Shown: positions 22,483 through 60,950, numbered from the stretch's first letter. The stretch is 64,000 nt of DNA from an uncultured Campylobacter sp. (GCA_900539255.1 UQBJ01000003.1:22058-86057), one strand, 5' to 3'. The notes: a model not told the origin generated them from the letters alone. Made by a program: numbers and translations.

Positions 22483-22671
22483 ATGACAATAACCCTAACA
22501 AATGTCAAAGAAGAATTTTTGCCAAATGTCAAGGAATTTAGCAAGTCAATCAACGCTGAATTTCAAATCAACGCCGAAAAACCGAGCTTTGAAAAAGTGC
22601 GCGAAAATTTAAAAGCGAATTTGCAAAAGCCTGAAAATTACGCCGTATTTGAAAGGCTTAAAGACAAATGA
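22483..22671 (+). CDS. Putative antitoxin of Phd/Doc-like type II TA module
   Basis: 62-aa ORF with its own TATAAT at 22448-22453 and RBS AAAGGA. There is an ATGA overlap with the downstream Doc-family toxin. The antitoxin family was not recognised by sequence. Confidence 0.5.
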   Translation: MTITLTNVKEEFLPNVKEFSKSINAEFQINAEKPSFEKVRENLKANLQKPENYAVFERLKDK

Positions 22672-23051
22672 ACTACCTTTCGTTTGATGAAGCCATCATC
22701 TTGCATAATGACATAATGAAGCAAATGCAAGGGCTTGTGGGGTTTAACAAGGCACAAGTTAGCTACTTGCAATCTGCGCTAGAACATATACAAAATGATG
22801 AATTTTACCCTGAATTTTTGGATAAACTTACCCATTTAGTCTTTGCTTGCGTGAAATTTCACCCTTTTTTAGACGGCAACAAACGCAGCGCCATTTACCT
22901 AGCTCACGCTTTTATAGAACTCAATGCGCCTGAAATTCTGCCTGATGATTTTTATCAAAGGCTTGAAAATGTCGTTGTCGATGTGGCAAGCGATAAGATG
23001 AGCAAAGACGAGCTAAAAGCCTTTTTAAAAGGCATTTTAAAGCAAATTTAA
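22668..23051 (+). CDS. Doc (death-on-curing) / Fic-fold toxin
   Basis: 127 aa carrying the Doc signature HPFLDGNKRSA (HxFx[DN]GNKR). Confidence 0.8.
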   Translation: MNYLSFDEAIILHNDIMKQMQGLVGFNKAQVSYLQSALEHIQNDEFYPEFLDKLTHLVFACVKFHPFLDGNKRSAIYLAHAFIELNAPEILPDDFYQRLENVVVDVASDKMSKDELKAFLKGILKQI

Positions 23052-24497: not shown

Positions 24498-25490
24498 TTG
24501 CAAAAAATTATTGACGAGATACACGCTTGTCAGAGTTTAGACGAGCTTGAAAAAATCCGCATAAGCGTGCTTGGCAAAAAGGGAAGCTTGACTTTGCAGT
24601 TTGGCAAGCTCAAAGATTTGGACGGCGAAGCAAAGAAAAAGTTCGCCAGCACCCTAAACACAGACAAAAACACATTTAACGAAGCCTACGAAGCCCGTAA
24701 AAAAGAGCTTGAAACGCTTTTTTTAGACGGCGATATGCGTAAGGGCGCACAGAATTTCAGTTATTTTGACGAAAACACCAAAGCAGGCGCATTTCACCCT
24801 GTAAATTCAACTATGGATAAAATCATCGATTATTTTGTGAGCCTAAATTTCAGCGTTGAAAAGGGACCTTTGATAGAAGATGACTTTCATAATTTTGAAG
24901 CCCTAAATTTACCCAAATCTCACCCCGCGCGCGATATGCAAGATACCTTTTATTTTGATGATGGCAAACTTTTACGCACTCAAACTTCGCCCGTGCAAAT
25001 CCGCACAATGCTCGCTCAAAAGCCACCCATTCGTATGATAGCCCCTGGTGCAGTGTTTAGGCGGGATTTTGACTTAACGCACACGCCTATGTTTCATCAG
25101 GTTGAAGGGCTTGTGGTAGAAAACGGACAAAAGGTGAGTTTTGCGAATTTAAAAAGCGTTTTGGTGGAGTTTTTACACTACTTTTTTGGCGATGTCAAGG
25201 TGCGCTTTCGCCCAAGTTTCTTTCCTTTCACGGAGCCGTCCGCAGAGGTTGATATATCTTGTGTGTTTTGCAAGGGTGCGGGCTGTCGTGTTTGCAAGCA
25301 AACGGGCTGGCTTGAAGTGCTAGGGTGTGGGGTTGTAGACCCAAATGTTTATAATTTTGTGGATTATAAAAATGTCAGCGGTTATGCTTTTGGGCTTGGT
25401 GTGGAGCGTTTTGCAATGCTTTATCATCAAATACCAGACTTGCGTTCGCTTTTTGAGGGAGATTTAAGACTTTTGGAGCAGTTTAGATGA
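24498..25490 (+). CDS. pheS: Phenylalanyl-tRNA synthetase alpha subunit
   Basis: Class II aaRS motifs are present. The start is probably TTG at 24498 (RBS AAAGGG 6 nt upstream), giving 330 aa. The ORF track extends to 24441. Confidence 0.88.
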
Positions 25491-27817
25491 TATTTACACG
25501 AAGTTGGATTAGTCAGTTTATCGACATAAGCGACAAAAGTTTAAGCGAAATTTGCGCCACACTCAATGCTGTGGGCATCGAAGTAGAAAGCTCTCACGCC
25601 TTACGCGCACCAGATAAAGTCGTAGTAGGCTTTGTCAAAGAAAAAAGCAAGGTAGAAAACTCCGACAAACTCAGTCTTTGCAAGGTTGATATAGGCGAAA
25701 AGGATTTGTTGCAAATCGTTTGCGGGGCGAAAAATGTCGCCGCTGGGCAGTTTGTGGCTGTGGCGCTTGTGGGCGCGGTTTTGCCAAATGGCACTAAAAT
25801 CGCCAAAGCAAAGCTTCGTGGGGTTGAAAGCGAGGGTATGATTTGCTCATCAAGCGAACTTGGCTTTGAAAAAACAAGAGACGGCATAATGGTGCTTGAC
25901 GATACTATGGGCAAACTCGTGCTTGGGCGAGCCTTAAACGCCTATGAAATCTTTAACGATGAAGTTATAGAAGTGGATATAACGCCAAATCGTGGGGATT
26001 GTCTAAGCGTGTATGGCATAGCACGCGAGTTAAGCGTGGCTTATGATAAAGATTTGAAAGCCCTTGACGCTTATGAAGAGTCCAAAGAAACCCCAACCGT
26101 TGGGCGAATTTTGCGCGTGCAAGCGGACAAAAATCTCAACAGCTGTTTTGATTATAGAGTGGTTGAAAAAGCCCAGCCCGTGAGTGTTTTTAGTATCGTG
26201 GCGGAGTTAAGACTTGCTACTATCGGCAAGCTCACGCCTTGCGTAGTCTCAAACATACTTCAATACGCCACTCACGCCACAGGCGTGCTATTTAACGCCT
26301 ATGATTTAAAGGCTTTGAGCGACAAAGATGATGAAATCCTTTTGCAAGTGCGTAAGGGCGCGCAAGGCGAAAGCAAGGTGTATCACGAAGACAAGCTATT
26401 AAGCACGAGCGGAATTTACACGCAGGATTTTGGTAAGGTTGATGAAAACAGCCGTTTTATCATCATCGAAGCAAACTACACCACGCCAAGCGTCATCGCC
26501 GCCGCAAAAGACAGCTACAAAAAACTTGACGAGGACAGCATTTACCGCGCCTTTCGGGGCAGCGAACCGCAGTTAAAGCTAGGAATGCAGTATTTGATGA
26601 GCCGCATTATATCAAGACCGCACATTCATATCTACCAAAATTCACAGCAAATTTCGCTCAAATGCAAGAGCGCGAACATAAGGCTTGATTTAAGCGAGGT
26701 GGAAAAGCTCATCGGCGTGAGTGTCAAGGCTAGCGAAGTGGCGCGGATTTTAAAAAGGCTGAATTTTGAAGTCGATGTGGTAGAAAAGGATTTGTTTAGT
26801 GTCAAAGCTCCGATTTTTCGCAGCGATATAAACAATTTCGCCGATGTTTGCGAGGAAATCACACGCGTTATCGGCATCGACAATATCCCCGCAAAGCCCT
26901 TGCAGCTTACCGAGCAAACCCGCTTGAATGAGTGTTATTACGAGTATAAAGACTTGTCCGCACTTCGCCACAAAGCAGTGGCAAATGGCTACTTTGAGAG
27001 CGTGCATTATGTGCTTGACAGCGAGGAAGAGCTTGGCGCACTTGGCTTTAAAGCGAGCAAAACAAAGCTCATCAACCCCATCAGCACCGAGCTAAACGCC
27101 TTACGCCCAACACTTATCAATCATCTTTTAAACGCCGTGAGCTTTAACACCAAAAATTCAAAAAAAATCATCAAACTTTTCACTAGCGGAGCGGTTTTTG
27201 ATGAGAATTTAAACGAAAAAAACAAAATCGCTTTCGTGTTTAGCGGCTTTAAGGACGAGCCAAAGATAGCAAACAAAGCAAAGCCTGAATTTATCGACTT
27301 TTACAGCTTTTTGCTTGAAATGAAAACCATCATCGGCGACTTTACGCTAAACCGCGCTCATTACGGCTTTTTAAACCCTTACGAGCAAGCAAGTGTCCAT
27401 AAAAACGGGCTTTGCATAGGCTTTGTAGGGCGCGTGCATTTAGGCATAGAGCGCGACAAGGACTTGCAAAAGACTTATCTTTGCGAGCTTGACTTGTCCG
27501 CCTTGCGAAATGAGCCAAAAAAAGCCAAGCCATACTCCAAATTTCCACAGATGAGCCGCGATTTGAGCGTGATTATCCCCAAAGATTACGAGTATGAAAA
27601 GATAAAAGACTGCATAAAAGCCCTTAAAATCGGCATTTTAAAAAGTTTTCGCGTTGTGGATTTATACGAGGACGCGTCCTTGCAAGGCAAATACAGCCTT
27701 ACCATAGCCTTTGTTTTCCAAAACGATGAAAAAACCCTAGCCGATAGCGAAGTGAGCGAGCAAATGGAGCTGATTGTCCGCTCACTTGATGAGAATTTAG
27801 GGCTGAAACTGCGATGA
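25487..27817 (+). CDS. pheT: Phenylalanyl-tRNA synthetase beta subunit
   Basis: 776 aa with tRNA-binding, B3/B4, B5 and FDX-ACB domains recognisable. It overlaps the pheS stop. Confidence 0.92.
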
Positions 27818-29097
27818 AAATTCACGCTTTAACGCAGGGTTTTGACAAAGAGTTTGAAAAAATCGCCGCTGATAAGAGCATATCTCATCGCTTTGCCATT
27901 TTTTCAATGCTTTGTGAGAGTGAGTGCGTGGCAAAGAACTATTTACTTGCAGAAGATACACTTAACACCCTTGAAATAGTGCGAAATTTAGGCGCACTCG
28001 TGCAAAGAAATGGCGATGAAGTGCGTATCAAAGCCCCAAAAAGCCTAAATTCTCCAAACAAAATTTTAGAGTGTGGCAACTCTGGCACGGCTATGCGCCT
28101 TTTTATGGGCTTTTTAGCTGGGGTGAATGGCTTTTTTGTTTTAAGCGGCGACAAATACCTAAATTCTCGCCCGATGAAGCGAATCAGCGAGCCTTTGCAA
28201 AGCGTTGGGGCGAAAATTTACGGGCGCGAGGGCGCAAATTTAGCCCCGCTTTGCATAGAGGGCGGCGAGCTTAAAGCCTTTGAGTATCAAAGCCCTATCT
28301 CATCGGCGCAGGTAAAAACCGCGCTCATTTTAGCGGGCTTTCGCGCAAAGGGCGTGTCGCATTTTAGCGAAACAAAACTCAGCCGCGACCACAGCGAAAA
28401 TATGCTTTTAGCGATGAATGCGCCTATAAATTTAAGCGAAAATGGACTAAAAATCGAAATTTCGCCACTCACAAAGCCTTTAAAACCGCTTAATATCGTC
28501 ATTCCAAACGACCCATCATCGGCGTTTTATTTTGCGCTTGCGGGCGCGCTTTTGCCAAATTCACGCGTGGTGCTGAAAAATGTGCTTTTAAACAAAACCC
28601 GCATTGAAGCCTTTAAGGTGCTTGAAAAAATGGGCGCAAGGATTGAATTTAAGCAAATTCACAACGACTTTGAAAGCGTGGGTGAAATTTGCGTTGAAAG
28701 CTCGCATTTAAGGGCTGTGAGCGTGAGTGAAAATATCTCGTGGTTGATTGATGAAGCCCCAGCACTTGCCATAGCCTTTGCCTGCGCTGAGGGCGTTTCA
28801 AGGCTTACTAATGCCAAAGAACTGCGCGTCAAAGAAAGCGACCGCATAAGCGCTGTGGTGCAAAATTTGCAAAAATGTGGCATCGTGGCAAAAGAGCTTG
28901 ATGATGGCTTTGAGATACAAGGTGGCGTGGCGAAAAGGGCGAAAATTCAAAGTTTTGGCGACCACCGCATAGCGATGAGCTTTGCTATCTTGGGGCTTAA
29001 ATGCGGTATGGACATAGATGAATGCGAATGTATCAACACTTCTTTTCCAAATTTTCTTTCACTGCTTGAAAATTTGGGAGCTGTGGTTGAAAGATAA
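27814..29097 (+). CDS. aroA: 3-phosphoshikimate 1-carboxyvinyltransferase (EPSP synthase)
   Basis: 427 aa with motifs LGNSGTAMRL and RPMKRI. It overlaps the pheT stop. Confidence 0.92.
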   Translation: MKIHALTQGFDKEFEKIAADKSISHRFAIFSMLCESECVAKNYLLAEDTLNTLEIVRNLGALVQRNGDEVRIKAPKSLNSPNKILECGNSGTAMRLFMGFLAGVNGFFVLSGDKYLNSRPMKRISEPLQSVGAKIYGREGANLAPLCIEGGELKAFEYQSPISSAQVKTALILAGFRAKGVSHFSETKLSRDHSENMLLAMNAPINLSENGLKIEISPLTKPLKPLNIVIPNDPSSAFYFALAGALLPNSRVVLKNVLLNKTRIEAFKVLEKMGARIEFKQIHNDFESVGEICVESSHLRAVSVSENISWLIDEAPALAIAFACAEGVSRLTNAKELRVKESDRISAVVQNLQKCGIVAKELDDGFEIQGGVAKRAKIQSFGDHRIAMSFAILGLKCGMDIDECECINTSFPNFLSLLENLGAVVER

Positions 29098-29198
29098 ATT
29101 TAAAATTTAGGATTTAAATTTTGTTATTTTAGCTAAATTTTTAAGCTTGATTTTATAAATTTTTTCTTAAATTTTTCGTATAAAATTCATAAATTTTG

Positions 29199-29207
29199 TG
29201 TTATAAT
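29199..29207 (+). promoter_or_regulatory. Extended -10 promoter (TGtTATAAT) for YafQ-type TA module 1
   Basis: TGTTATAAT lies 31 nt upstream of the antitoxin ATG at 29238. Confidence 0.5.
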
Positions 29208-29237
29208 GCAAGTATAAAGCCAAAAGAAAGGACTAAA

Positions 29238-29477
29238 ATGGGCGCAAAGGCTATTGATTACAGCGTTTATAACGAAGAAGCCTTGTTTATGGAGCTTAAC
29301 AGCACCAAAGAGCAAATCGCTGAGCTAGAAAGTAAAAAAAGCCAAATCGAGCAAGCGTTGCAAAGCATACCCACTGATGAAACGGCTAATGCTTTGAGAA
29401 ATTCTTACACCGTGCTTAAAACAAAGGATTATACGGATTTTGAAAAAATGCTTGCAAGCGAAGATGATGAGCAATAA
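29238..29477 (+). CDS. Putative antitoxin (DinJ/RelB-like position) of YafQ-type TA module 1
   Basis: 79 aa with an acidic C-terminal tail (SEDDEQ). It has an ATG/TAA overlap with the toxin gene. The start is placed at 29238 (RBS AAAGGA) rather than 29196, which overlaps the -10 box. Confidence 0.5.
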   Translation: MGAKAIDYSVYNEEALFMELNSTKEQIAELESKKSQIEQALQSIPTDETANALRNSYTVLKTKDYTDFEKMLASEDDEQ

Positions 29478-29752
29478 TGCGCGAAATTCACTTTGAAAAC
29501 ACCTACATAAAGGACTTTAAACTTGTCAAAAAACAGGGTTGGAATTTAGAAAAAATCAAAAACACGATTTTACAGCTCCAAACTTGCGAAATTTTAGACG
29601 AAAAACTTAACGACCACTCATTAAAAGGCGATTTTAAAGGGTTTAGAGAATGCCATATCTTTGGGGATTTGGTTGTCATCTATAAGCGAGATAAAGAAAT
29701 TTTGACACTTTACAGGATAGGCAGACACCAAGATTTGTTTAAAAACTACTGA
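29477..29752 (+). CDS. YafQ/RelE-family mRNA interferase toxin
   Basis: 91 aa carrying the pattern HSLKGDFKGFRECHIFGDLVVIYKRDKEILTLYRIGRHQDLF, which is characteristic of YafQ. Confidence 0.75.
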   Translation: MREIHFENTYIKDFKLVKKQGWNLEKIKNTILQLQTCEILDEKLNDHSLKGDFKGFRECHIFGDLVVIYKRDKEILTLYRIGRHQDLFKNY

Positions 29753-29858
29753 ATTTTCGTGTAAAATTTCGCAAAAATTCACAAATTTTGCGTAAAATTT
29801 CAAGGAAGTTAAAACAAATTTAAAACAGCAAAATTTCAAACGACAAAAAGGAAACATT

Positions 29859-30698
29859 GTGATTATCGAGTTAGCGGAAAATTATGGCTTTTGTTTTGGC
29901 GTAAAAAGGGCGATTAAAAAAGCCGAGCAGGTAGGAAACGCCGCTACCATAGGCGAGCTTATCCACAACCCTGCTGAAATTTCGCGCTTGCAGGCGAATT
30001 TTAATGTCAAAACCCTGCAAAACATAAGCGAGTTAAAGGACGAAAAAAAGGCGATTATACGCACGCACGGCATCACAAGGGGCGATTTGAGCGAGCTTCG
30101 CAAAAAAGACATTGAAATTTACGATGCGACTTGCCCCTTTGTAACCAAACCCCAGCAAATTTGCGAAAAGATGAGCGCGGAAGGCTATGAAGTCGTGATT
30201 TTTGGCGATGAAAACCACCCAGAAGTTAAGGGTGTGAAAAGCTATGTCAGCACCAAAGCCTATGTCGTGCTTGATGAGAGCGAGCTTTTAGGGGTGCGAC
30301 TGCCCGCAAAAATCGCCGTGGTAAGCCAAACGACAAAAAAACCCGAGCTTTTTGCCAAAATAGTGAGCTTTTTAGTGGCTAAGTGCAAGGAAGTGCGCGT
30401 GTTTAACACGATTTGCGATGCGACTTTCAAAAACCAAGATGCCATCGAAAAACTCTCATTAAAAAGCGATGTGATGGTAATTGTTGGCGGTAAAAACTCA
30501 GCAAACACCAAGCAGCTCTTTCTCATCGCGCAAGGAAACTGCAAGGATAGCTATTTAATCGAAACAAAAAGCGAGTTAAAGCCCGAGTGGTTCGCGGGCA
30601 AAAAGCATTGCGGTGTGAGCGCTGGGGCTAGCACGCCTGAGTGGATAATCGCCCAAGTTGTCGAAAAAATCAAAGAAATCGACAAAGATTTAGGCTAA
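29859..30698 (+). CDS. ispH: 4-hydroxy-3-methylbut-2-enyl diphosphate reductase
   Basis: 279 aa with a GTG start and RBS AAAGGAAAC. It has the IspH/LytB N-terminus and the three conserved Cys. Confidence 0.9.
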   Translation: MIIELAENYGFCFGVKRAIKKAEQVGNAATIGELIHNPAEISRLQANFNVKTLQNISELKDEKKAIIRTHGITRGDLSELRKKDIEIYDATCPFVTKPQQICEKMSAEGYEVVIFGDENHPEVKGVKSYVSTKAYVVLDESELLGVRLPAKIAVVSQTTKKPELFAKIVSFLVAKCKEVRVFNTICDATFKNQDAIEKLSLKSDVMVIVGGKNSANTKQLFLIAQGNCKDSYLIETKSELKPEWFAGKKHCGVSAGASTPEWIIAQVVEKIKEIDKDLG

Positions 30699-30827
30699 AA
30701 CGGCTGAATTTTGTTTGAAATGCGGATTTTGTTTGGCTTTTTTGATTTTTTTGGCTTTTGAGCTTTATTTTGTTTGATTTAAAACTAGGTTTGGTTTTTG
30801 TTTTGCTTTTAAGCTTTGTTTGTTTGT

Positions 30828-30960
30828 TTTTAGGCATTGTGAGCTTGCTTACTTTTAGACATTGCGAGTTTTTTTAGGCGTTATAAGCTTAGTTATTTTT
30901 AGGCGTTGCAGACTTGCTTTTTTGTTTTTAAGCATTTTAGGTTTGGCTTGTGTTAGATTG
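30828..30960. repeat. Degenerate tandem repeat (~25-bp unit ttttaggcrttg..agcttg.ttat x ~5)
   Basis: Direct reading of the intergenic region after ispH. Confidence 0.7.
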
Positions 30961-31020
30961 TTTTTTTGCAAAAAATTGCGTGCCGTGTTGCCGTTGCAAA
31001 CTACCAAAATAGCACGATAT

Positions 31021-31245
31021 GCTTCGTCATTGCGAGCGAGTTTTGCAAGCGTAATTTAAATGCAAATTCAGTTCTATGGATTGCCACGCTTTGCTTTCGC
31101 AAAGCTCGCAATGACAAAACCCTTGTCATACTAACTTGCGTCTTGTCATACTGAGCGCAGCGAAGTATCCATAAATTCAAAGTATATCTTAAATACTTCT
31201 TTGTGGATTTTTCGCTTTCTAGTGAAAGCTCAAAATGACAAAAAT
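31021..31245 (+). repeat. Dispersed imperfect-palindrome element, locus B (divergent copy 31024-31118, half-site 31121-31141, full copy 31142-31241)
   Basis: Full copy: TTGTCATACTGAGCG-ca-GCGAAGTATCCATAA ... TTGTGGATTTTTCGC-[ctttc tagt gaaag]-GCTCAAAATGACAA. An upstream variant reads GTCATTGCGAGCGAG...GCTCGCAATGACAAAA. It lies between convergent ispH and aroB. Confidence 0.8.
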
Positions 31246-31276
31246 GGCGTAAAAAGTCCAAATTTTCACGCTAAAT

Positions 31277-32335
31277 TCAGCCTGCAAAGCTTTCAAGCAC
31301 CTTTATAACGCTTTCTTTGCTGATGTCGTTTTTGATGATAGCCTTGCCAAGCCCTTGCAAAAGGACAAAGTTGATTTTGGAATTTGCGCTTTTTTTATCA
31401 AGGAAAAAGGCGTTGTAAAATTCCTCTGCGTTGCTGATTTTATAGTGCGTTGGCAAGCTAAATTTTTCAAACAATGCCTTTATGCGGTCGTTTTCACTCT
31501 GCGTGATAAGTCCAAGCGCGAGTGAAAGGGCGTTTGCCATCACTATGCCTATGGCGACAGCCTCGCCGTGTAGATACAGCTTGTAATCCGTTTGTTTTTC
31601 GATGATATGCGCGAACGAATGCCCGAAATTTAGAAGCATTCTCAGCTGGTTTTCGCGCTCATCGACACTCACTATGCTAGCTTTGAGCTGCACGCTTTTG
31701 CTGATGATTTGGCTAAACTGCTCGCTTGGTAAATCGGCTTTTAAAAAGGCATTTGTGTCTAAACTCTCGATGAGTTCGAGCGCGTCCGTGTCAAAACACG
31801 CCGCCATTTTGATAAATTCAGCCATACCTGCGGCAAGTTCTCGGCTACCAAGCGTTTCGAGAAACTCACTCTCACAATAAACGGCTTTTGGCTGGTAAAA
31901 TGAGCCGATGAGATTTTTGCCAAAGGCGTTATTTACTCCTGTCTTGCCACCCACAGCCGCATCAACCATAGCTAAAAGCGTAGTCGGCACGCTGATGAAA
32001 TCAATCCCGCGCTGATAAATGCTCGCCGCAAAGCCACCTATATCCGTAACAACCCCGCCGCCAAAGGCAATCAGCGTGCTTTTTCTGTCAAGCTGGCTTA
32101 CAAACATTTGATTGAACACCTCTTCAAGCGTGGCAAGGTTTTTATACTGCTCGCCGTCCTTTATGGTGATGATGAAAAGCTCATCACACGAAATTTTAGC
32201 AAGCAGATTTTTAAGGTGCAAGCCCGCGACTTTGGCGTTGGTAAGCACCGCCACTTTGCCCTCAAATTCGAGCTTTGAAAGCTCATTGATGGAGACTTTG
32301 TAGGAATTGTTTTCTAAATTTACGAGTATTTTCAT
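31277..32335 (-). CDS. aroB: 3-dehydroquinate synthase
   Basis: 352 aa with the NAD-binding [13 protein letters not shown] motif and metal-binding His residues. Confidence 0.92.
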
Positions 32336-32349
32336 CGTTTTGCCTTATT

Positions 32350-32628
32350 TTATTTTTTAAAAAGTTCGCTGTGCGAACCAAGTCGCACAAGGTGCAATTC
32401 GTCTTTGGTAATTTTATACACCAAAAGTAAATTTGGCTTTATATGACACTCTTTGTAAGCCTTTAAATCGCCCGTAAGCTTGTGGTCTTGGTATTTTGGT
32501 GCAAGTGGAATTTGACAAAGCAAGCTCTCAACGACACTTTCAATCTCATCTTGCGTGATAATGCCTTGCTTGTAGATTTTTTTAATGTCGCCTTTAAAGC
32601 TATTTTCGACTTTGAGCTTTAACTTCAT
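32350..32628 (-). CDS. YafQ/RelE-family mRNA interferase toxin (paralog 2)
   Basis: Carries HKLTGDLKAYKECHIKPNLLLVYKI...LHLVRLGSHSELF. This parallels the toxin at 29477-29752. An ATG at 32628 or a TTG at 32634 could be the start. Confidence 0.7.
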   Translation of the reverse strand: MKLKLKVENSFKGDIKKIYKQGIITQDEIESVVESLLCQIPLAPKYQDHKLTGDLKAYKECHIKPNLLLVYKITKDELHLVRLGSHSELFKK

Positions 32629-32881
32629 CGTCAATCTCTCGCTTCATTTCGTCCCAAAAATCGCTAAATTTCTCATAACTTTTGCCATTTTTTCCGCTCT
32701 CGCATTCTTTCATCGCCTTTAAAGTCTCTTTATTTGGGATTTCTTTAAGGTTTTTGGGTGCTTTTGTTTTTTTGCTTTTATCGACCTTAAATTTCGCATT
32801 AGCGACTTTGGCAAGTTCTTTAAATACCTTTAAAAATTCATCGCTGACATTTTCTAGCGTGATTGTGGCTGAATTCATCAT
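32600..32881 (-). CDS. Putative antitoxin of YafQ-type TA module 2
   Basis: 93 aa upstream of and overlapping the toxin by ~29 bp. A TATAAT -10 and RBS AAAGGACG lie upstream. The sequence is unrelated to the module-1 antitoxin. Confidence 0.45.
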   Translation of the reverse strand: MMNSATITLENVSDEFLKVFKELAKVANAKFKVDKSKKTKAPKNLKEIPNKETLKAMKECESGKNGKSYEKFSDFWDEMKREIDDEVKAQSRK

Positions 32882-32950
32882 CGTCCTTTCGCCTAAAATT
32901 TAACGCATTATAGCAAAACTTTGCTAAAATTCACGCAAAAAAGGACAAAA

Positions 32951-34069
32951 ATGCGATTTGACATAAAACACCAAGACGGCAACGCTCGCGTGTGCGAGAT
33001 ACAAACCGCACACAGCAGCTTTGAAACGCCTATTTTTATGCCTGTTGGCACGGCTGGTGCGGTGAAAAGCCTTGACGCTAACGATATGAGCGAAATTTTA
33101 GGCGCAAAAATCATCTTAGCAAACACCTATCATCTTTACTTGCGCCCTACTTCGCAGGTGGTGGCGAGTTTGGGCGGTTTGCACGGCTTTACGCGCTACA
33201 ATGGCTCGTTTTTAACCGACAGCGGCGGCTTTCAAGCCTTTTCTTTAAGCAAAAATTCAAATCCAGATGAAAGGGGCATTGCCTTTAAAAGCCACATTGA
33301 TGGGAGTTTGCACTTTTTTACGCCCCAAAGTGTGCTTGATACGCAGTATGAGCTAAACTCCGATATAATGATGATTTTAGATGATTTAGTTGCCTTGCCA
33401 GCGGAGAAAAAGCGCGTTGATTTAAGCGTGCAAAGGACGATAAAATGGGCGAAAGAGGCTATAAAATACCACAAAAGCAAGCAAAATTTGGGCGTTGGAC
33501 TTCATCAAAATATCTTTGGTATCGTGCAGGGCGGGACTGATTTTGAGGCGCGAAAGGCTTGTGCGAGCGCACTTTGCGAGCTAGAATTTGACGGATTAGC
33601 TATCGGCGGACTGAGCGTTGGGGAAGAAAATCAAGCAATGTATGATACAGTCGAGGCTATGATGCCTTTTATGGACACAAATCGCCCAAGATACTTGATG
33701 GGCGTTGGAACGCCTGAGGATTTAGTCGAAAATGTCGAGCGCGGAGTAGATATGTTTGACTGCGTAATGCCTACGCGCAACGCTCGCAACGGCACACTTT
33801 TCACAAAGCACGGGAAATTCAACATTAAACGCGCTGAATTTATCAAAGATGACGAGCCTATTGAGAAAGATTGTGAGTGCTACACCTGCAAACGCTACTC
33901 AAAAGGCTATTTAAATCATCTCTTTCGCGCTGGCGAGCTGACATTTTTTCGCCTTGCGAGCCTGCATAACTTGCATTATTATCTCACGCTGATGGCGCAA
34001 ATCCGCTCAGCGATAAAGGCGCATAAATTTAGCGGATTTAAAAAGGAATTTTACGCCAAACGCTCTTAA
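32951..34069 (+). CDS. tgt: Queuine tRNA-ribosyltransferase
   Basis: Carries the TGT signature (FMPVGT, zinc site CxCxxC...[17 protein letters not shown]). The start is ATG at 32951 with RBS AAAGGA. Confidence 0.9.
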
Positions 34070-51116: not shown

Positions 51117-51406
51117 AAACGCGAGCAAGCAACTTAAAAGCTGAATTTTGCTTGATTTTAGATGAAAATTTTGGGCGAAATTCGGCTTTTTGCGTGGCAA
51201 AACCTTGCGAAAGTCAAAAAATTTACAGCATTGAAACAAAACTATAAATTTATAGCGTTGAAACAAAGTTATAAATTTTTTAGCTAAAAAGCGTTGATTG
51301 TGAGTGAATTTTATCAATCATCGCAAGCAAAGCTTTTTTGCAAGCTTTGCTTAATCCAGCCTTTGCAAGCATTGTCTTTTCAAGCATTTGCGTTTGCTAA
51401 CGCCCG

Positions 51407-53560
51407 CTAGTATTTATACTCAAAGCCTGCAAACCATTGTCGCCCAGCGAAATGATAGCTCTGCCCTATAACGCCTGAGTAGTTATCTCTATCGGTTAAA
51501 TTCAGCACGCCAGCATTGACACTCAAACCCTTGCCAAGCTCGTAGTTTGCCGACAAGTCCAAAGTAAAGTAGTTTGCACCCTTGTCATAGCCGCCGTTGC
51601 CGTCTTCATAGTATCTTGCGCTTTCAAGTGTGCTAAGAGCGATGAATTTAAGGCTGTTTATCGGCTTTATGATGATTTTAGCATTAGCTATGTGGTTTGG
51701 ATAATCAAGGATTTTTTTGCCATCCGAGCTGCCGTAAGCTTCAAGCTCCACGCCTTTGGCTCTTTTTTGGATAAAACTATAATTCGCCCCCAAAATCAGC
51801 ATATCATCAGCGAAAAAGCCCTGCTCCACGCCCACTTCACCGCCATAAGTGTAGCCGCTGTCCGCATTGACATTTTGGTAGCAAGAGTATTTGCCTCTTT
51901 TGTTTTCAGGCACGGCGCAAACGGCTTTTGCTGCGTTTTCATCTGCCGTTTGAATAAGCGTTTTTTGGACAAACATATTTTTCATATCGTTGTAAAACAC
52001 CGCCACGCTTAAATTCGTGCTTCCAAGTGCTAAATCATACCCTAGCTCGTAATTTATGGCATTTTCTATGTCAAGCCCCGGGCTTTTAACCTGCGCGCCC
52101 CATAGTGATGAGTAGCGTTGCTTTAAGGTTGGCAGGTTGTTTTTCTTGCCAAGCGTGAAATGCACGCTTTGCGCTGAGCTTATATCATAATAAAGCACGC
52201 CCTGCAAAGAGTAGCCATCATCAAGTTCGGGCTGTTTGTCTTTGACATTGCCTTGTCCGTCCTTAAAGTCGATATTCAAAGGCTCTATAAAATCATAGCT
52301 TCCAGCCACGACAGCACGAAACACGCCCAGCCTTTGGGAGTATTGCGCGAAAATGCTTGTGCTAAGCTCTTTAAGCTCGGTGTTGATAGCCTTTGTGCTA
52401 GCGTCCTTTTCCAAATGCGTGTCTTTTTTTGTGTTGATACCAAATTTAGCGTTTGCATTTTCATAAATGTCATAGCCAAGCGTCAAAATAAGCCCCAAAG
52501 TGTTATCATCATAAATAGAGCTTACGCCGCAAAACCCAGCACTGCTCGCGCTGCCATCAGCGTTTAGGCATTTTGTTTTATCGCCAATGAGAGTGTTGTA
52601 AAAGGTATCATAATAAAGCCTTGTGTTTAGGCTCAAATCGGGCGTAAAGTATGAATTTCCTAGCAAATAAAGTGTCTTTTTGTCGTAGTTTGTCCAGTCC
52701 CACCAAGGTCCGCCGCCATCATCGCTGTATAAACCGCCCTTTTCGCCCCTTTGATAGATGAAATTCAAAGAGTATTCGTGGTTTTCATTTGGCATAATGC
52801 CCGCTTTGAGTTTAGCGGTTTTGTTTCTATAATAAGCGTTGATTTTATCGCCCTTTGGCTGTATGATAGTGGGCTTAAAATCGCTTGAAAGCGGGTAAGT
52901 GCTTCTGTCTGTGTGCGAAATGTCGGCTTGAAAGTAGAATTTACCGACATTTGAGCCTATGCCAAAGCCTTGACGAATTTCATCAGGGCTTGAATGTCTG
53001 CCAAAAAGCAAATTTTGACGCACGGAGATTTCAAGCTCTTTTTGCGGGCGGTGCGAGATGATATTTATCGCCCCGCCAAGCGTGTTCATACCATAAACAG
53101 GCGAGGCAAAGCCCTTGCTGACTTGAATGCTCCCTATGCCTTGCGTAACATACTGCCCAAAATCCGTCTGTTTGTCATAAACGCTCATCATAGGAATGCC
53201 GTCTAAAAACAGCCCGATTTGAGTGCCATTAAACCCACGAATGCTAATGCTTGGCTCGCCACGCCTTGCCGTAGCTTCACTCATCAAAACGCCCGGCGTA
53301 AAACGCACCGCTTGGGCTATATTGTCAGCATTTAACTCTTGTATGTCCCTAAAAGTCGTGCTTTGAATGCTAGGATTATAGTCTATCTCCTGCGGGGCAG
53401 TAACTTCGACAGCACCAAGTTCATAAGTAGGAAGCGTGGTGCTTAAATTTAGCTTTGAATTCAGCTCACTTGTAGCGTTACTCTCACCAAAAGCACAGCT
53501 TGCAAGCAAGCCTAAACAAAGCGTTTGCGAAAGCAAAATCTTGCTAAAATAACCTTGCAT
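51407..53560 (-). CDS. TonB-dependent outer-membrane receptor
   Basis: 717 aa with a signal peptide, a plug domain (PSISIRGFNGTQIGLFLDGIPM) and a 22-strand barrel ending ...WFAGFEYKY. Confidence 0.88.
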   Translation of the reverse strand: MQGYFSKILLSQTLCLGLLASCAFGESNATSELNSKLNLSTTLPTYELGAVEVTAPQEIDYNPSIQSTTFRDIQELNADNIAQAVRFTPGVLMSEATARRGEPSISIRGFNGTQIGLFLDGIPMMSVYDKQTDFGQYVTQGIGSIQVSKGFASPVYGMNTLGGAINIISHRPQKELEISVRQNLLFGRHSSPDEIRQGFGIGSNVGKFYFQADISHTDRSTYPLSSDFKPTIIQPKGDKINAYYRNKTAKLKAGIMPNENHEYSLNFIYQRGEKGGLYSDDGGGPWWDWTNYDKKTLYLLGNSYFTPDLSLNTRLYYDTFYNTLIGDKTKCLNADGSASSAGFCGVSSIYDDNTLGLILTLGYDIYENANAKFGINTKKDTHLEKDASTKAINTELKELSTSIFAQYSQRLGVFRAVVAGSYDFIEPLNIDFKDGQGNVKDKQPELDDGYSLQGVLYYDISSAQSVHFTLGKKNNLPTLKQRYSSLWGAQVKSPGLDIENAINYELGYDLALGSTNLSVAVFYNDMKNMFVQKTLIQTADENAAKAVCAVPENKRGKYSCYQNVNADSGYTYGGEVGVEQGFFADDMLILGANYSFIQKRAKGVELEAYGSSDGKKILDYPNHIANAKIIIKPINSLKFIALSTLESARYYEDGNGGYDKGANYFTLDLSANYELGKGLSVNAGVLNLTDRDNYSGVIGQSYHFAGRQWFAGFEYKY

Positions 53561-57566: not shown

Positions 57567-57775
57567 CTTGTCATACTTCGCTATTTTTGTCATACTTTGT
57601 TATTTCTTGTCATACTGAGCGTGAGCGAAGTATCCACAAATTTAAAGCGTGCCTTAAAATTCTTTGGATTTTTCGCTACGCTCAAAATGACAACGATTTG
57701 TTTGCCATACCGATAGTGTGATAAGTATCCATTTTGCTTTGCCATACTGAGCGTGTGCTAAGTATCCGCGAAGTT
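57567..57775 (+). repeat. Dispersed imperfect-palindrome element, locus D (three TTGTCATACT half-starts, full copy 57607-57692, two further left-arm-like units)
   Basis: Full copy: TTGTCATACTGAGCG-tga-GCGAAGTATCCACAAA...TTTGGATTTTTCGC-tac-GCTCAAAATGACAA. Flanking units: TTGCCATAC...AAGTATCCA and TGCCATACTGAGCG-tgt-GCtAAGTATCC. Confidence 0.8.
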
Positions 57776-60358: not shown

Positions 60359-60950
60359 AAGCCTATTTCAAGGCGTTTTGCTTGGGCTTGGCGTGGCTGT
60401 GCCTTTTGGACCCTTAAATGTGCTGATTTTAAGCTATGCCCTGCGTTCCTTTAAAAACGCCTTTGCTTTGGGCTTGGGCGCGATGAGTGCTGACATTTTT
60501 TACTTGCTTTTGCTGCTTTTTGGGCTTTTGCGCTTTTTAAACAGCCACATTTTACAGCAAATCATCGCCCTTTTTGGCTTTGTGTTTCTCAGTTTTATGG
60601 CGTTTTCGCTGCTTAAAAGCAAGGCAAAGGCACTTCAAATCAAGCAAAATTCAGCAAATGAAAGCATTGCAAAAAGCTATTTTAAGGGCTTTGTGCTGAA
60701 TTTACTCAACCCTTTCATCATCGCTTTTTGGGCGAGCGTGTCGCTGATTTTTTCGCAAAATGAAAGCAAGGCGTTTATGGTGCTTGGGCTGTTTGTGGCG
60801 ATTTTTGCTTGGGTTTTTTCACTCAGCTATTTTGTGGCTAAATTCGCGCACAAATTTAACGCCCGCATAGTGCGCGCCATAAATCTCATCTCAGCCCTTA
60901 TCATAGAGTATTTTGCACTGCTTTTGGTGTATAAGGTTTTTTTGGTATAA
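60348..60950 (+). CDS. LysE/RhtB-family amino-acid exporter
   Basis: 200 aa with 6 TM segments and a LysE-type N-terminus ([12 protein letters not shown]). Confidence 0.75.

Follow-up and report, generated by a model that had tools for sequence, protein, structure and literature searches.

Within a 64,000-nucleotide (nt) stretch of DNA from an uncultured Campylobacter sp. (GCA_900539255.1 UQBJ01000003.1:22058-86057; hereafter the window, with positions counted from its first letter), two small gene pairs, here called TA1 and TA2, face each other across the genes ispH and aroB. An earlier note on this DNA had proposed two antitoxin-toxin pairs, and all four open reading frames (ORFs) exist. 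The organism is a Campylobacter whose ispH product is 98% identical to that of the human-gut metagenome-assembled genome HGM08919 (L001) and 84% identical to that of C. troglodytis.

On the plus strand, pheT (25487-27817) and aroA (27814-29097) are followed by the TA1 promoter with its extended -10 element (TGTTATAAT, 29199-29207), by the putative antitoxin gene A1 (29238-29477; 79 amino acids (aa)), an ORF with an AAGGA ribosome-binding site 7 nt before its ATG, by the toxin gene T1 (29477-29752; 91 aa), by a locus-specific spacer of 106 nt (29753-29858) and, downstream of TA1 and co-oriented with it, by ispH (lytB; 29859-30698; Pfam LYTB, 1.9e-87). On the minus strand lie the TA2 promoter with its extended -10 element (TGCTATAAT, 32915-32907, within 32907-32926), the putative antitoxin gene A2 (32600-32881; 93 aa), the toxin gene T2 (32350-32628; 92 aa) and, after a gap of 14 nt, aroB (31277-32335; Pfam DHQ_synthase, 9e-48, and DHQS_C, 6e-43). 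The tgt gene (32951-34069) runs divergently from TA2 on the plus strand, with its own -10 element at 32922-32930. The two modules are convergent, as the earlier note had it, and enclose ispH, a repeat-rich spacer of 578 nt and aroB; the spacer holds element B (30717-31240; no strand assigned), a repeat-rich stretch delimited by homology breakpoints that joins the ispH block to the aroB block.

We propose that TA1 and TA2 are two separate type II toxin-antitoxin (TA) modules of the DinJ/RelB-YafQ kind, with separate origins, that became neighbours through a recent strain-specific rearrangement, and we put the probability of this reading at about 0.8. It draws on what could be observed of toxin family, active-site conservation, gene anatomy, synteny, presence/absence polymorphism and the domain relationships of the antitoxins.

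The toxins were the most readily placed of the four proteins. Both match the Pfam family YafQ_toxin (PF15738; RelE/ParE superfamily), for which the gathering cut-off is 30 bits, T1 with 5.8e-27 (94.3 bits, profile positions 1-88 of 88) and T2 with 1.1e-27 (96.6 bits, positions 2-88), and both pass the NCBIfam model RelE_StbE (TIGR02385; 66 bits for T1, cut-off 27.9). With the YafQ subfamily model TIGR00053, T2 in addition reaches 87.6 bits, above the cut-off of 87.25. In a search of the PDB the best matches of T2 were the Helicobacter pylori toxins HP0892 (5e-21) and HP0894 (3e-20), to which T1 was matched at about 4e-14, and E. coli YafQ came next. The catalytic residues of YafQ have been given as H50, H63, D67, R83, H87 and F91 (PMC7584586). 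In an alignment with an E. coli YafQ sequence whose numbering agrees with that paper, H50, H63, R83, H87 and F91 were present in both toxins, and the D67 position was occupied by Asp in T1 (6/6 residues) and by Asn in T2 (5/6 residues). On the strength of these profiles and alignments both toxins are further members of the known YafQ family. As RelE-fold mRNA endonucleases of ~91 aa they would cleave ribosome-bound mRNA, and the C-terminal helices of each antitoxin would wrap the cognate toxin and so neutralise it.

The earlier note had called the toxins paralogues with a shared YafQ pattern, which the Pfam matches of both bear out, together with a pairwise identity of 38% over 88 residues (E 1e-19). 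Within their own clades, however, the values are much higher, 66-78% between T1 and the toxins of its clade and 63-78% between T2 and the toxins linked to aroB. Given this difference (38% versus 63-78%), and given that the two modules also belong to different genomic settings, we consider their origins to be independent. A duplication of one toxin gene within this genome was considered and ruled out by the 38% identity and the separate clades.

The gene anatomy is that of a type II TA operon: in each pair a small upstream antitoxin gene overlaps the toxin gene, the pair has a promoter of its own, and the pairing is conserved, with a YafQ toxin following the A1 or A2 homologue in 32/32 loci examined. 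These features and the YafQ family of the toxins support the assignment of both pairs to TA systems in the earlier note. A1 and T1 overlap by 1 nt (TAATG) and A2 and T2 by 29 nt, out of frame. The latter overlap, already remarked on as unusually long, is real and not an artefact of annotation, since the N-terminus of T2 (MKLKLKVENSF) aligns with HP0894 starting at HP0894 residue 2 and the corresponding overlaps in relatives are 17-32 nt. Through these overlaps translation of each toxin would be coupled to that of its antitoxin.

The TATAAT boxes reported earlier for each module were recovered as the two extended -10 elements given above. These promoter calls rest on a search for TGNTAWAAT, which has 20 matches in the window against 9.5 expected and which replaced a generic sigma-70/terminator scan; the latter returned 7 promoter-like sites against 7.7 expected in shuffled sequence and missed both extended -10 elements. 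A TGTGyTATAATG block is invariant 5' of A1 homologues in five other loci, copies on conjugative elements included, and 5' of A2 the TA2 promoter is kept in four lineages together with a palindrome, TAGCAAA-N2-TTTGCTA (TAGCAAAACTTTGCTA, 32911-32926), that is a candidate operator. Palindromes overlap the -10 regions of both TA1 and TA2, and that of TA2 overlaps the divergent tgt -10 element as well. Each pair would be transcribed from its own extended -10 promoter, which the antitoxin or the antitoxin-toxin complex probably represses. No extended -10 element of the strict TGNTAWAAT form lies between T1 and ispH or between T2 and aroB, and for that reason ispH and aroB would be at least partly transcribed from, or through, the TA promoters.

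The GC content of both cassettes is 0.30-0.37, compared with 0.43-0.49 in the flanks, which fits either horizontal acquisition or fast-evolving small genes. None of the four TA proteins matched a PADLOC defence model (0/4), and a search of 28900-33100 against Rfam at E <= 1 gave no match apart from one chance small nucleolar RNA.

The antitoxins were less easily classified. No match above threshold was found for A1 or A2 in Pfam, NCBIfam or the PDB, where single antitoxin sequences and antitoxin profiles alike returned only coiled-coil or HEAT-repeat noise. We collected 180 homologues of A1 and 13 of A2; an exhaustive search of 1.84 billion proteins with A2 gave 35 cluster representatives at E < 1e-3. 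The N-terminal half of A1, AIDYSVYNEEALFMELNSTKEQIAELESKKSQIEQAL, is predicted by AlphaFold2 (AF2) to form one long helix, and its C-terminal half is of the probable toxin-binding type IPTDET...F..ML.SEDDEQ; the model has a predicted local distance difference test score (pLDDT) of 74, a predicted template modelling score (pTM) of 0.36 and helices at 13-43 and 47-78. For A2 the N-terminal module, TITLENVSDEFLKVFKELAKVANAKFKV, is predicted with low pTM to form a strand-like segment followed by one helix, and the C-terminal half is of the probable toxin-binding type IPNKETLKAM...FWDEM (pLDDT 69, pTM 0.28). When these low-confidence models were searched with Foldseek, the top match of A2 was DinJ, which was not significant (E 1.3), and A1 had none.

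The earlier note had described the two antitoxins as dissimilar, and this is true of their N-terminal halves. In the C-terminal ~45 residues, to which all similarity is confined, the two share the motif IPxxETxxA...F....E, and here BLASTP finds 12/38 identities (E 7e-5), a profile-profile comparison gives E 3e-5 with a probability of 73% over 49 columns, and the profile of the A2 family finds a protein of the A1 family, P0102, at E 2e-5 among the same 1.84 billion proteins. On the combined weight of these three comparisons the C-terminal halves of A1 and A2 are homologous. P0102 is a natural chimera, with an A1-type N-terminal half (38/41 of its first residues are identical to A1) and an A2-type C-terminal half. 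In the H. pylori pairs HP0892-HP0893 and HP0894-HP0895 the antitoxin binds the toxin through its C-terminal ~30 residues (PMC3581365), and it is by analogy with these that the shared half is most likely a YafQ-neutralising module, the N-terminal halves then most likely being interchangeable modules for dimerisation or operator binding. Among the weaker signals, positions 42-74 of the Pfam RelB profile matched A2 residues 39-70 at E 0.033, and the best of its relatives at 3e-4, all below the gathering score; a FitA-like ribbon-helix-helix (RHH) domain matched A2 weakly (E 0.24), and some distant relatives of the A2 N-terminal module have sub-threshold DUF2683 matches.

A third TA-like pair is found elsewhere in the window, at 22483-23051 (+), where the gene for a 62-aa protein (22483-22671) overlaps by 4 nt a Fic/Doc-family gene encoding 127 aa (Pfam Fic, 4.3e-11; motif HPFLDGNKR). 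The N-terminus of the 62-aa protein, MTITLTNVKEEFLPNVKEFSKSINAEF, is of the type of the A2 N-terminal module (46% identity over 43 aa, E 2.7e-5). L083 and L086 have the pair as well, and in L082 and L085 other genes take its place. Judged by such resemblances, namely the P0102 chimera and an A2-type N-terminal module in company with a Doc toxin, N- and C-terminal antitoxin modules have clearly been mixed and matched. Within the A1 family itself (L103-L110, P0016-P0120) a near-invariant N-terminal part of ~55 aa is combined with three or more alternative C-terminal tails. Along with the tail, the first ~30 residues of the partner toxins differ too, and the C-terminal halves of these toxins are almost identical. 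This covariation indicates recombination within the A1-family cassette.

The setting of TA1 could be compared across the genus. The aroA and ispH genes abut in 78/80 Campylobacter species representatives, with no relative of A1, T1, A2 or T2 within 6 kb. One exception is C. troglodytis, in which the junction holds an insert of ~4.3 kb (L002 1398-5983; only the 3' end of aroA is seen on this sequence). The insert carries genes for a C5 DNA methyltransferase (362 aa) and a putative restriction enzyme (338 aa), together with other ORFs. Because this restriction-modification (R-M) insert sits there, the junction that hosts TA1 in the window has also received another cassette, one for addiction or defence. 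L001, the second exception, is without window positions 29106-29716 and keeps the last 36 nt of T1 and the entire 106-nt spacer; given the persistence of these two pieces, its sequence is that of a TA1 deletion remnant. Five contigs of the same species have TA1 between aroA and ispH, at 96-97% amino-acid identity.

Beyond the species, a YafQ toxin comes next after the more distant homologues of A1 (68-80% identity) in every locus examined. Many A1-family loci lie between TrbM-like and NikA-like/ParA/relaxase genes (L102-L106, L110), a gene content that marks conjugative elements, and others lie at unrelated chromosomal sites. Homology within the family begins ~70 nt 5' of A1 and ends at the toxin stop codon, and the T1-ispH spacer, which also has two 29-nt direct repeats, is absent 3' of other T1-family toxins. 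Since aroA and ispH are tightly joined elsewhere and relatives of TA1 occur among conjugation genes, TA1 is, by this comparison of loci, a solo copy of a mobilome-associated cassette that was inserted into the pheST-aroA-ispH operon, at the aroA-ispH junction, in the ancestor of the species. An inverted repeat (20/21 nt) has one arm within T1 (29584-29604, codons TCEILDEK) and the other (29754-29774), beginning 2 nt past the T1 stop, in the locus-specific spacer; other T1-family loci lack this second arm. The repeat could form a stem in the mRNA, or it could be what is left of an inverted copy of the toxin gene.

TA2 belongs to a different clade, the one that lies nearest to HP0892/HP0894 of H. 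pylori. Homologues of A2 that are 71-81% identical were found in three further lineages, in which aroB is 83-90% and tgt 85-88% identical to that of the window, and in all of them A2, T2 and aroB follow one another in this order on one strand with tgt nearby. The gap between T2 and aroB is 9-14 nt in all TA2-bearing loci, and TA2 stays beside aroB in lineages without the ispH junction. The recurrence of this synteny, of the promoter and of the palindrome in divergent lineages points to TA2 being old in this clade. It would be a long-term resident between the aroB promoter and aroB, a position that would make A2, T2 and aroB one transcription unit, and the three genes form an apparent operon that is presumably co-transcribed. 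An 8-bp GC-containing hairpin with a T-run (32369-32390, minus strand), located in the last T2 codons ~35 nt before the aroB start, could attenuate read-through into aroB.

In a strain of the same species, L083, some 31 nt stand in place of 32347-32893, and the window arrangement is otherwise intact. The strain retains the promoter of TA2 with the palindrome, about 20 nt from the start of the leader, a piece of A2 that matches at 15/16 nt, a match that was reached by 17/2000 shuffles, and the aroB ribosome-binding site, which points to a secondary loss of TA2 in this strain. Given that conspecific strains carry deletion alleles, both modules are dispensable.

Several points weigh against our proposal. 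T1 falls under the TIGR00053 cut-off (69.7 bits against 87.25), and T2 may be attenuated, because Asn replaces the equivalent of the catalytic Asp67; the toxicity of T1 and T2, and its neutralisation, we infer from sequence. Searches for RHH, helix-turn-helix and AbrB domains gave no match in either antitoxin, the AF2 models being of low confidence, and because neither has a recognisable DNA-binding domain the autoregulation of both modules is assumed by analogy. The direction of the event in L083 is read from the synteny of relatives and from a short remnant (p about 0.01). Finally, internal promoters of ispH or aroB that deviate from the strict TGNTAWAAT pattern may exist.

The tight association of TA2 with aroB raised the question of whether the cassettes, TA2 above all, have been co-opted as 5' regulatory modules, such that expression of aroB, and perhaps of ispH, tracks antitoxin stability and autoregulation. 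Each module does lie directly upstream of, and co-oriented with, an essential biosynthetic gene, the gaps in A2-T2-aroB stay within 9-14 nt in four lineages, in which TA2 separates aroB from the one promoter that can be recognised, and the conserved TA2 promoter and palindrome, the latter reaching into the divergent tgt -10, were left before aroB when TA2 was deleted. On the other hand, aroB works without the cassette in L083, TA2 evolves faster (63-81% identity) than aroB and tgt (83-90%), and small cassettes are tolerated just 5' of gene starts, as the R-M cassette of C. troglodytis at aroA-ispH illustrates. We therefore regard co-option as unlikely, as we do the further idea that belongs to it, that the coiled-coil-type N-terminal module of A1 and the TLxIENVxDEFLxAFKxLAK-type module of A2 are undescribed operator-binding folds. 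Were it true, expression of the shikimate pathway, and possibly of queuosine modification, would be wired to antitoxin stability, with TA1 acting likewise for ispH, and TA modules would be stress-responsive 5' regulators of essential biosynthetic genes, beyond selfish passengers.

It was also reasonable to consider that one or both modules are inactive relics heading for loss, in view of the Asn at the Asp67 position of T2, of the deletion alleles in the population, and of the frequent loss of H. pylori YafQ toxin genes by mutational attrition (PMC7584586). Yet the four ORFs are intact, without frameshifts, and 95-99% identical among conspecific contigs, their promoters, ribosome-binding sites and overlaps are preserved, and the T2 orthologue in the L099 lineage has the same Asn in a toxin that is otherwise conserved; decay is on this evidence quite improbable.

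The proposal of two separate modules, newly brought together, finds its counterpart in the variable junction between them. Identity with other strains is 96-98% and breaks off at 30716-30718 next to ispH and at 31241 next to aroB: homology with strains of the rpsA type and the TonB type ends at 30716, and homology with strains of the miaB type ends at 31241. The gene next after ispH is rpsA in L081 and L084, an order that C. jejuni has as well, and a gene for a TonB-dependent receptor in L082 and L001, which in the window is found 20 kb away (51407-53560). In L083, L086 and L111, ispH is followed by element B and then aroB, and L111 has the identical double-TA arrangement. Next after aroB is a miaB-like radical-SAM gene in L087 and, in other lineages, in L095 and L099. 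Element B occurs only in the strains in which ispH and aroB are fused (the window, L083, L086 and L111).

Since synteny breaks between the modules and their neighbours differ among strains, we interpret the bracketing of ispH and aroB as an accident of rearrangement. The 2.9-kb bracketed segment is, on these breakpoints, a fusion of two unrelated synteny blocks that exists in some strains only, and the rearrangement in this strain would have fused the 3' ends of the ispH and aroB blocks via ~0.5 kb of repeat-rich DNA. In the comparison with related genomes, of the kind that the earlier note had suggested, the halves occur separately, and the segment is no unit. A motif, GCTGAATTTTGYTTGA, with 7 matches against 0.5 expected, coincides with the breakpoints; exact copies lie at 30703-30718, 51140-51155 and 60640-60655(-), where synteny with other strains breaks. 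In L001 and L082, window position 30718 is joined directly to 51136, and the intervening 20.4 kb (aroB, tgt, rpoD and others) lies elsewhere. Reading these 20.4 kb (30719-51135) as an inserted island was ruled out, as they carry aroB, tgt and rpoD and as other strains show further arrangements. Element B itself contains 39-nt direct repeats spaced 44-54 nt (30827-30963), a 15-nt inverted repeat (31023-31037 and 31104-31118) and a 43-nt match to 57605-57647.

This variability bears directly on a suggestion of the earlier note, that the modules are addiction cassettes guarding the segment against deletion as a form of local genome stabilisation. TA modules stabilise integrons and integrative and conjugative elements (ICEs) in other bacteria, and the region is prone to rearrangement. 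However, as essential genes ispH and aroB require no additional guarding, strains differ precisely at the junction between the modules, and each module has been lost singly, by a clean deletion, in a conspecific strain, all of which makes a guarding role very unlikely here. The other suggestion, of a former composite mobile element with ispH-aroB as its cargo and the modules as its inverted ends, is hardly tenable. The convergent and roughly symmetric orientation, the lower GC content of both modules relative to their flanks and the recurrence of the arrangement in a second contig (L111) would agree with it, but the toxins are only 38% identical, and the longest inverted repeat found to link the modules has 24 nt at 79%. 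Neither a transposase nor an integrase gene is found among the ORFs of 29000-33100, L081, L082, L084, L087 and L001 have the two halves unlinked, and the supposed cargo is made up of essential genes, present in single copy, with known ancestral neighbours (aroA-ispH-rpsA and tgt-aroB-miaB-like).

Among known systems, the best solved-structure matches for T1 and T2 are those of H. pylori HP0892-HP0893 (2OTR/4NRN) and HP0894-HP0895 (1Z8M/4LTT), both of which have been characterised experimentally (PMC3581365). They have in common with the window pairs toxins of ~90 aa, the C-terminal motif ...GSHSELF, an antitoxin gene upstream, and the presence of two divergent YafQ paralogues in one epsilonproteobacterial chromosome. 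Unlike the H. pylori pairs, which adjoin each other, those of the window precede ispH and aroB; moreover, no PDB chain was matched by the sequences of A1 and A2, whose N-terminal modules have no assigned family, and T2 has Asn at the Asp67 position. In H. pylori as a species there are up to six YafQ clades, of which some reside on the chromosome and others on plasmids or ICEs; their presence varies, and they often decay (PMC7584586). The toxin TfiT of the H. pylori tfs4 ICE is potentiated by a C-terminal lysine doublet (PMC7584586), and T2, which ends in HSELFKK, carries such a doublet. The likeness to TfiT-TfiA and the YafQ clades extends to the several subtypes per genome, to their variable presence and to the relaxase, TrbM and ParA genes beside members of the T1 family, whereas TA1 of the window, unlike TfiT-TfiA, was inserted into the chromosome by itself and is not surrounded by ICE genes. 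The antitoxins of Boampong et al. nest within the DinJ family (PMC7584586), in which A1 and A2 are not placeable.

E. coli DinJ-YafQ (4ML0, 4Q2U) shares with both modules the toxin fold family, the catalytic residues (with the exception of D67 in T2) and the antitoxin-first order, and the window toxins are about 34-37% identical to E. coli YafQ. DinJ, however, has an RHH N-terminal domain, of which none was detected in A1 or A2, and dinJ-yafQ is not fused to a housekeeping gene in the manner of TA2-aroB. YafQ-domain TA genes have also been recorded in Campylobacter isolates in an in-silico survey (PMC7826846). To these our analysis adds two more YafQ-family TA pairs from an under-studied human-gut Campylobacter lineage, which mostly tidies annotation and leaves current ideas on TA mechanism unchanged. 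Of possible interest to specialists are a TA cassette that has been kept fused to aroB, with its 9-14-nt gap, across four divergent lineages, antitoxin modules that have clearly been mixed and matched, and the lack of a curated family assignment for both antitoxin families.

One further rearrangement was seen at the left border of TA1 in the conspecific contig L084, where homology with the window starts at 29148; in this contig (1-2700) a gene for a type I R-M specificity subunit (Pfam Methylase_S) replaces aroA before TA1-ispH-rpsA.

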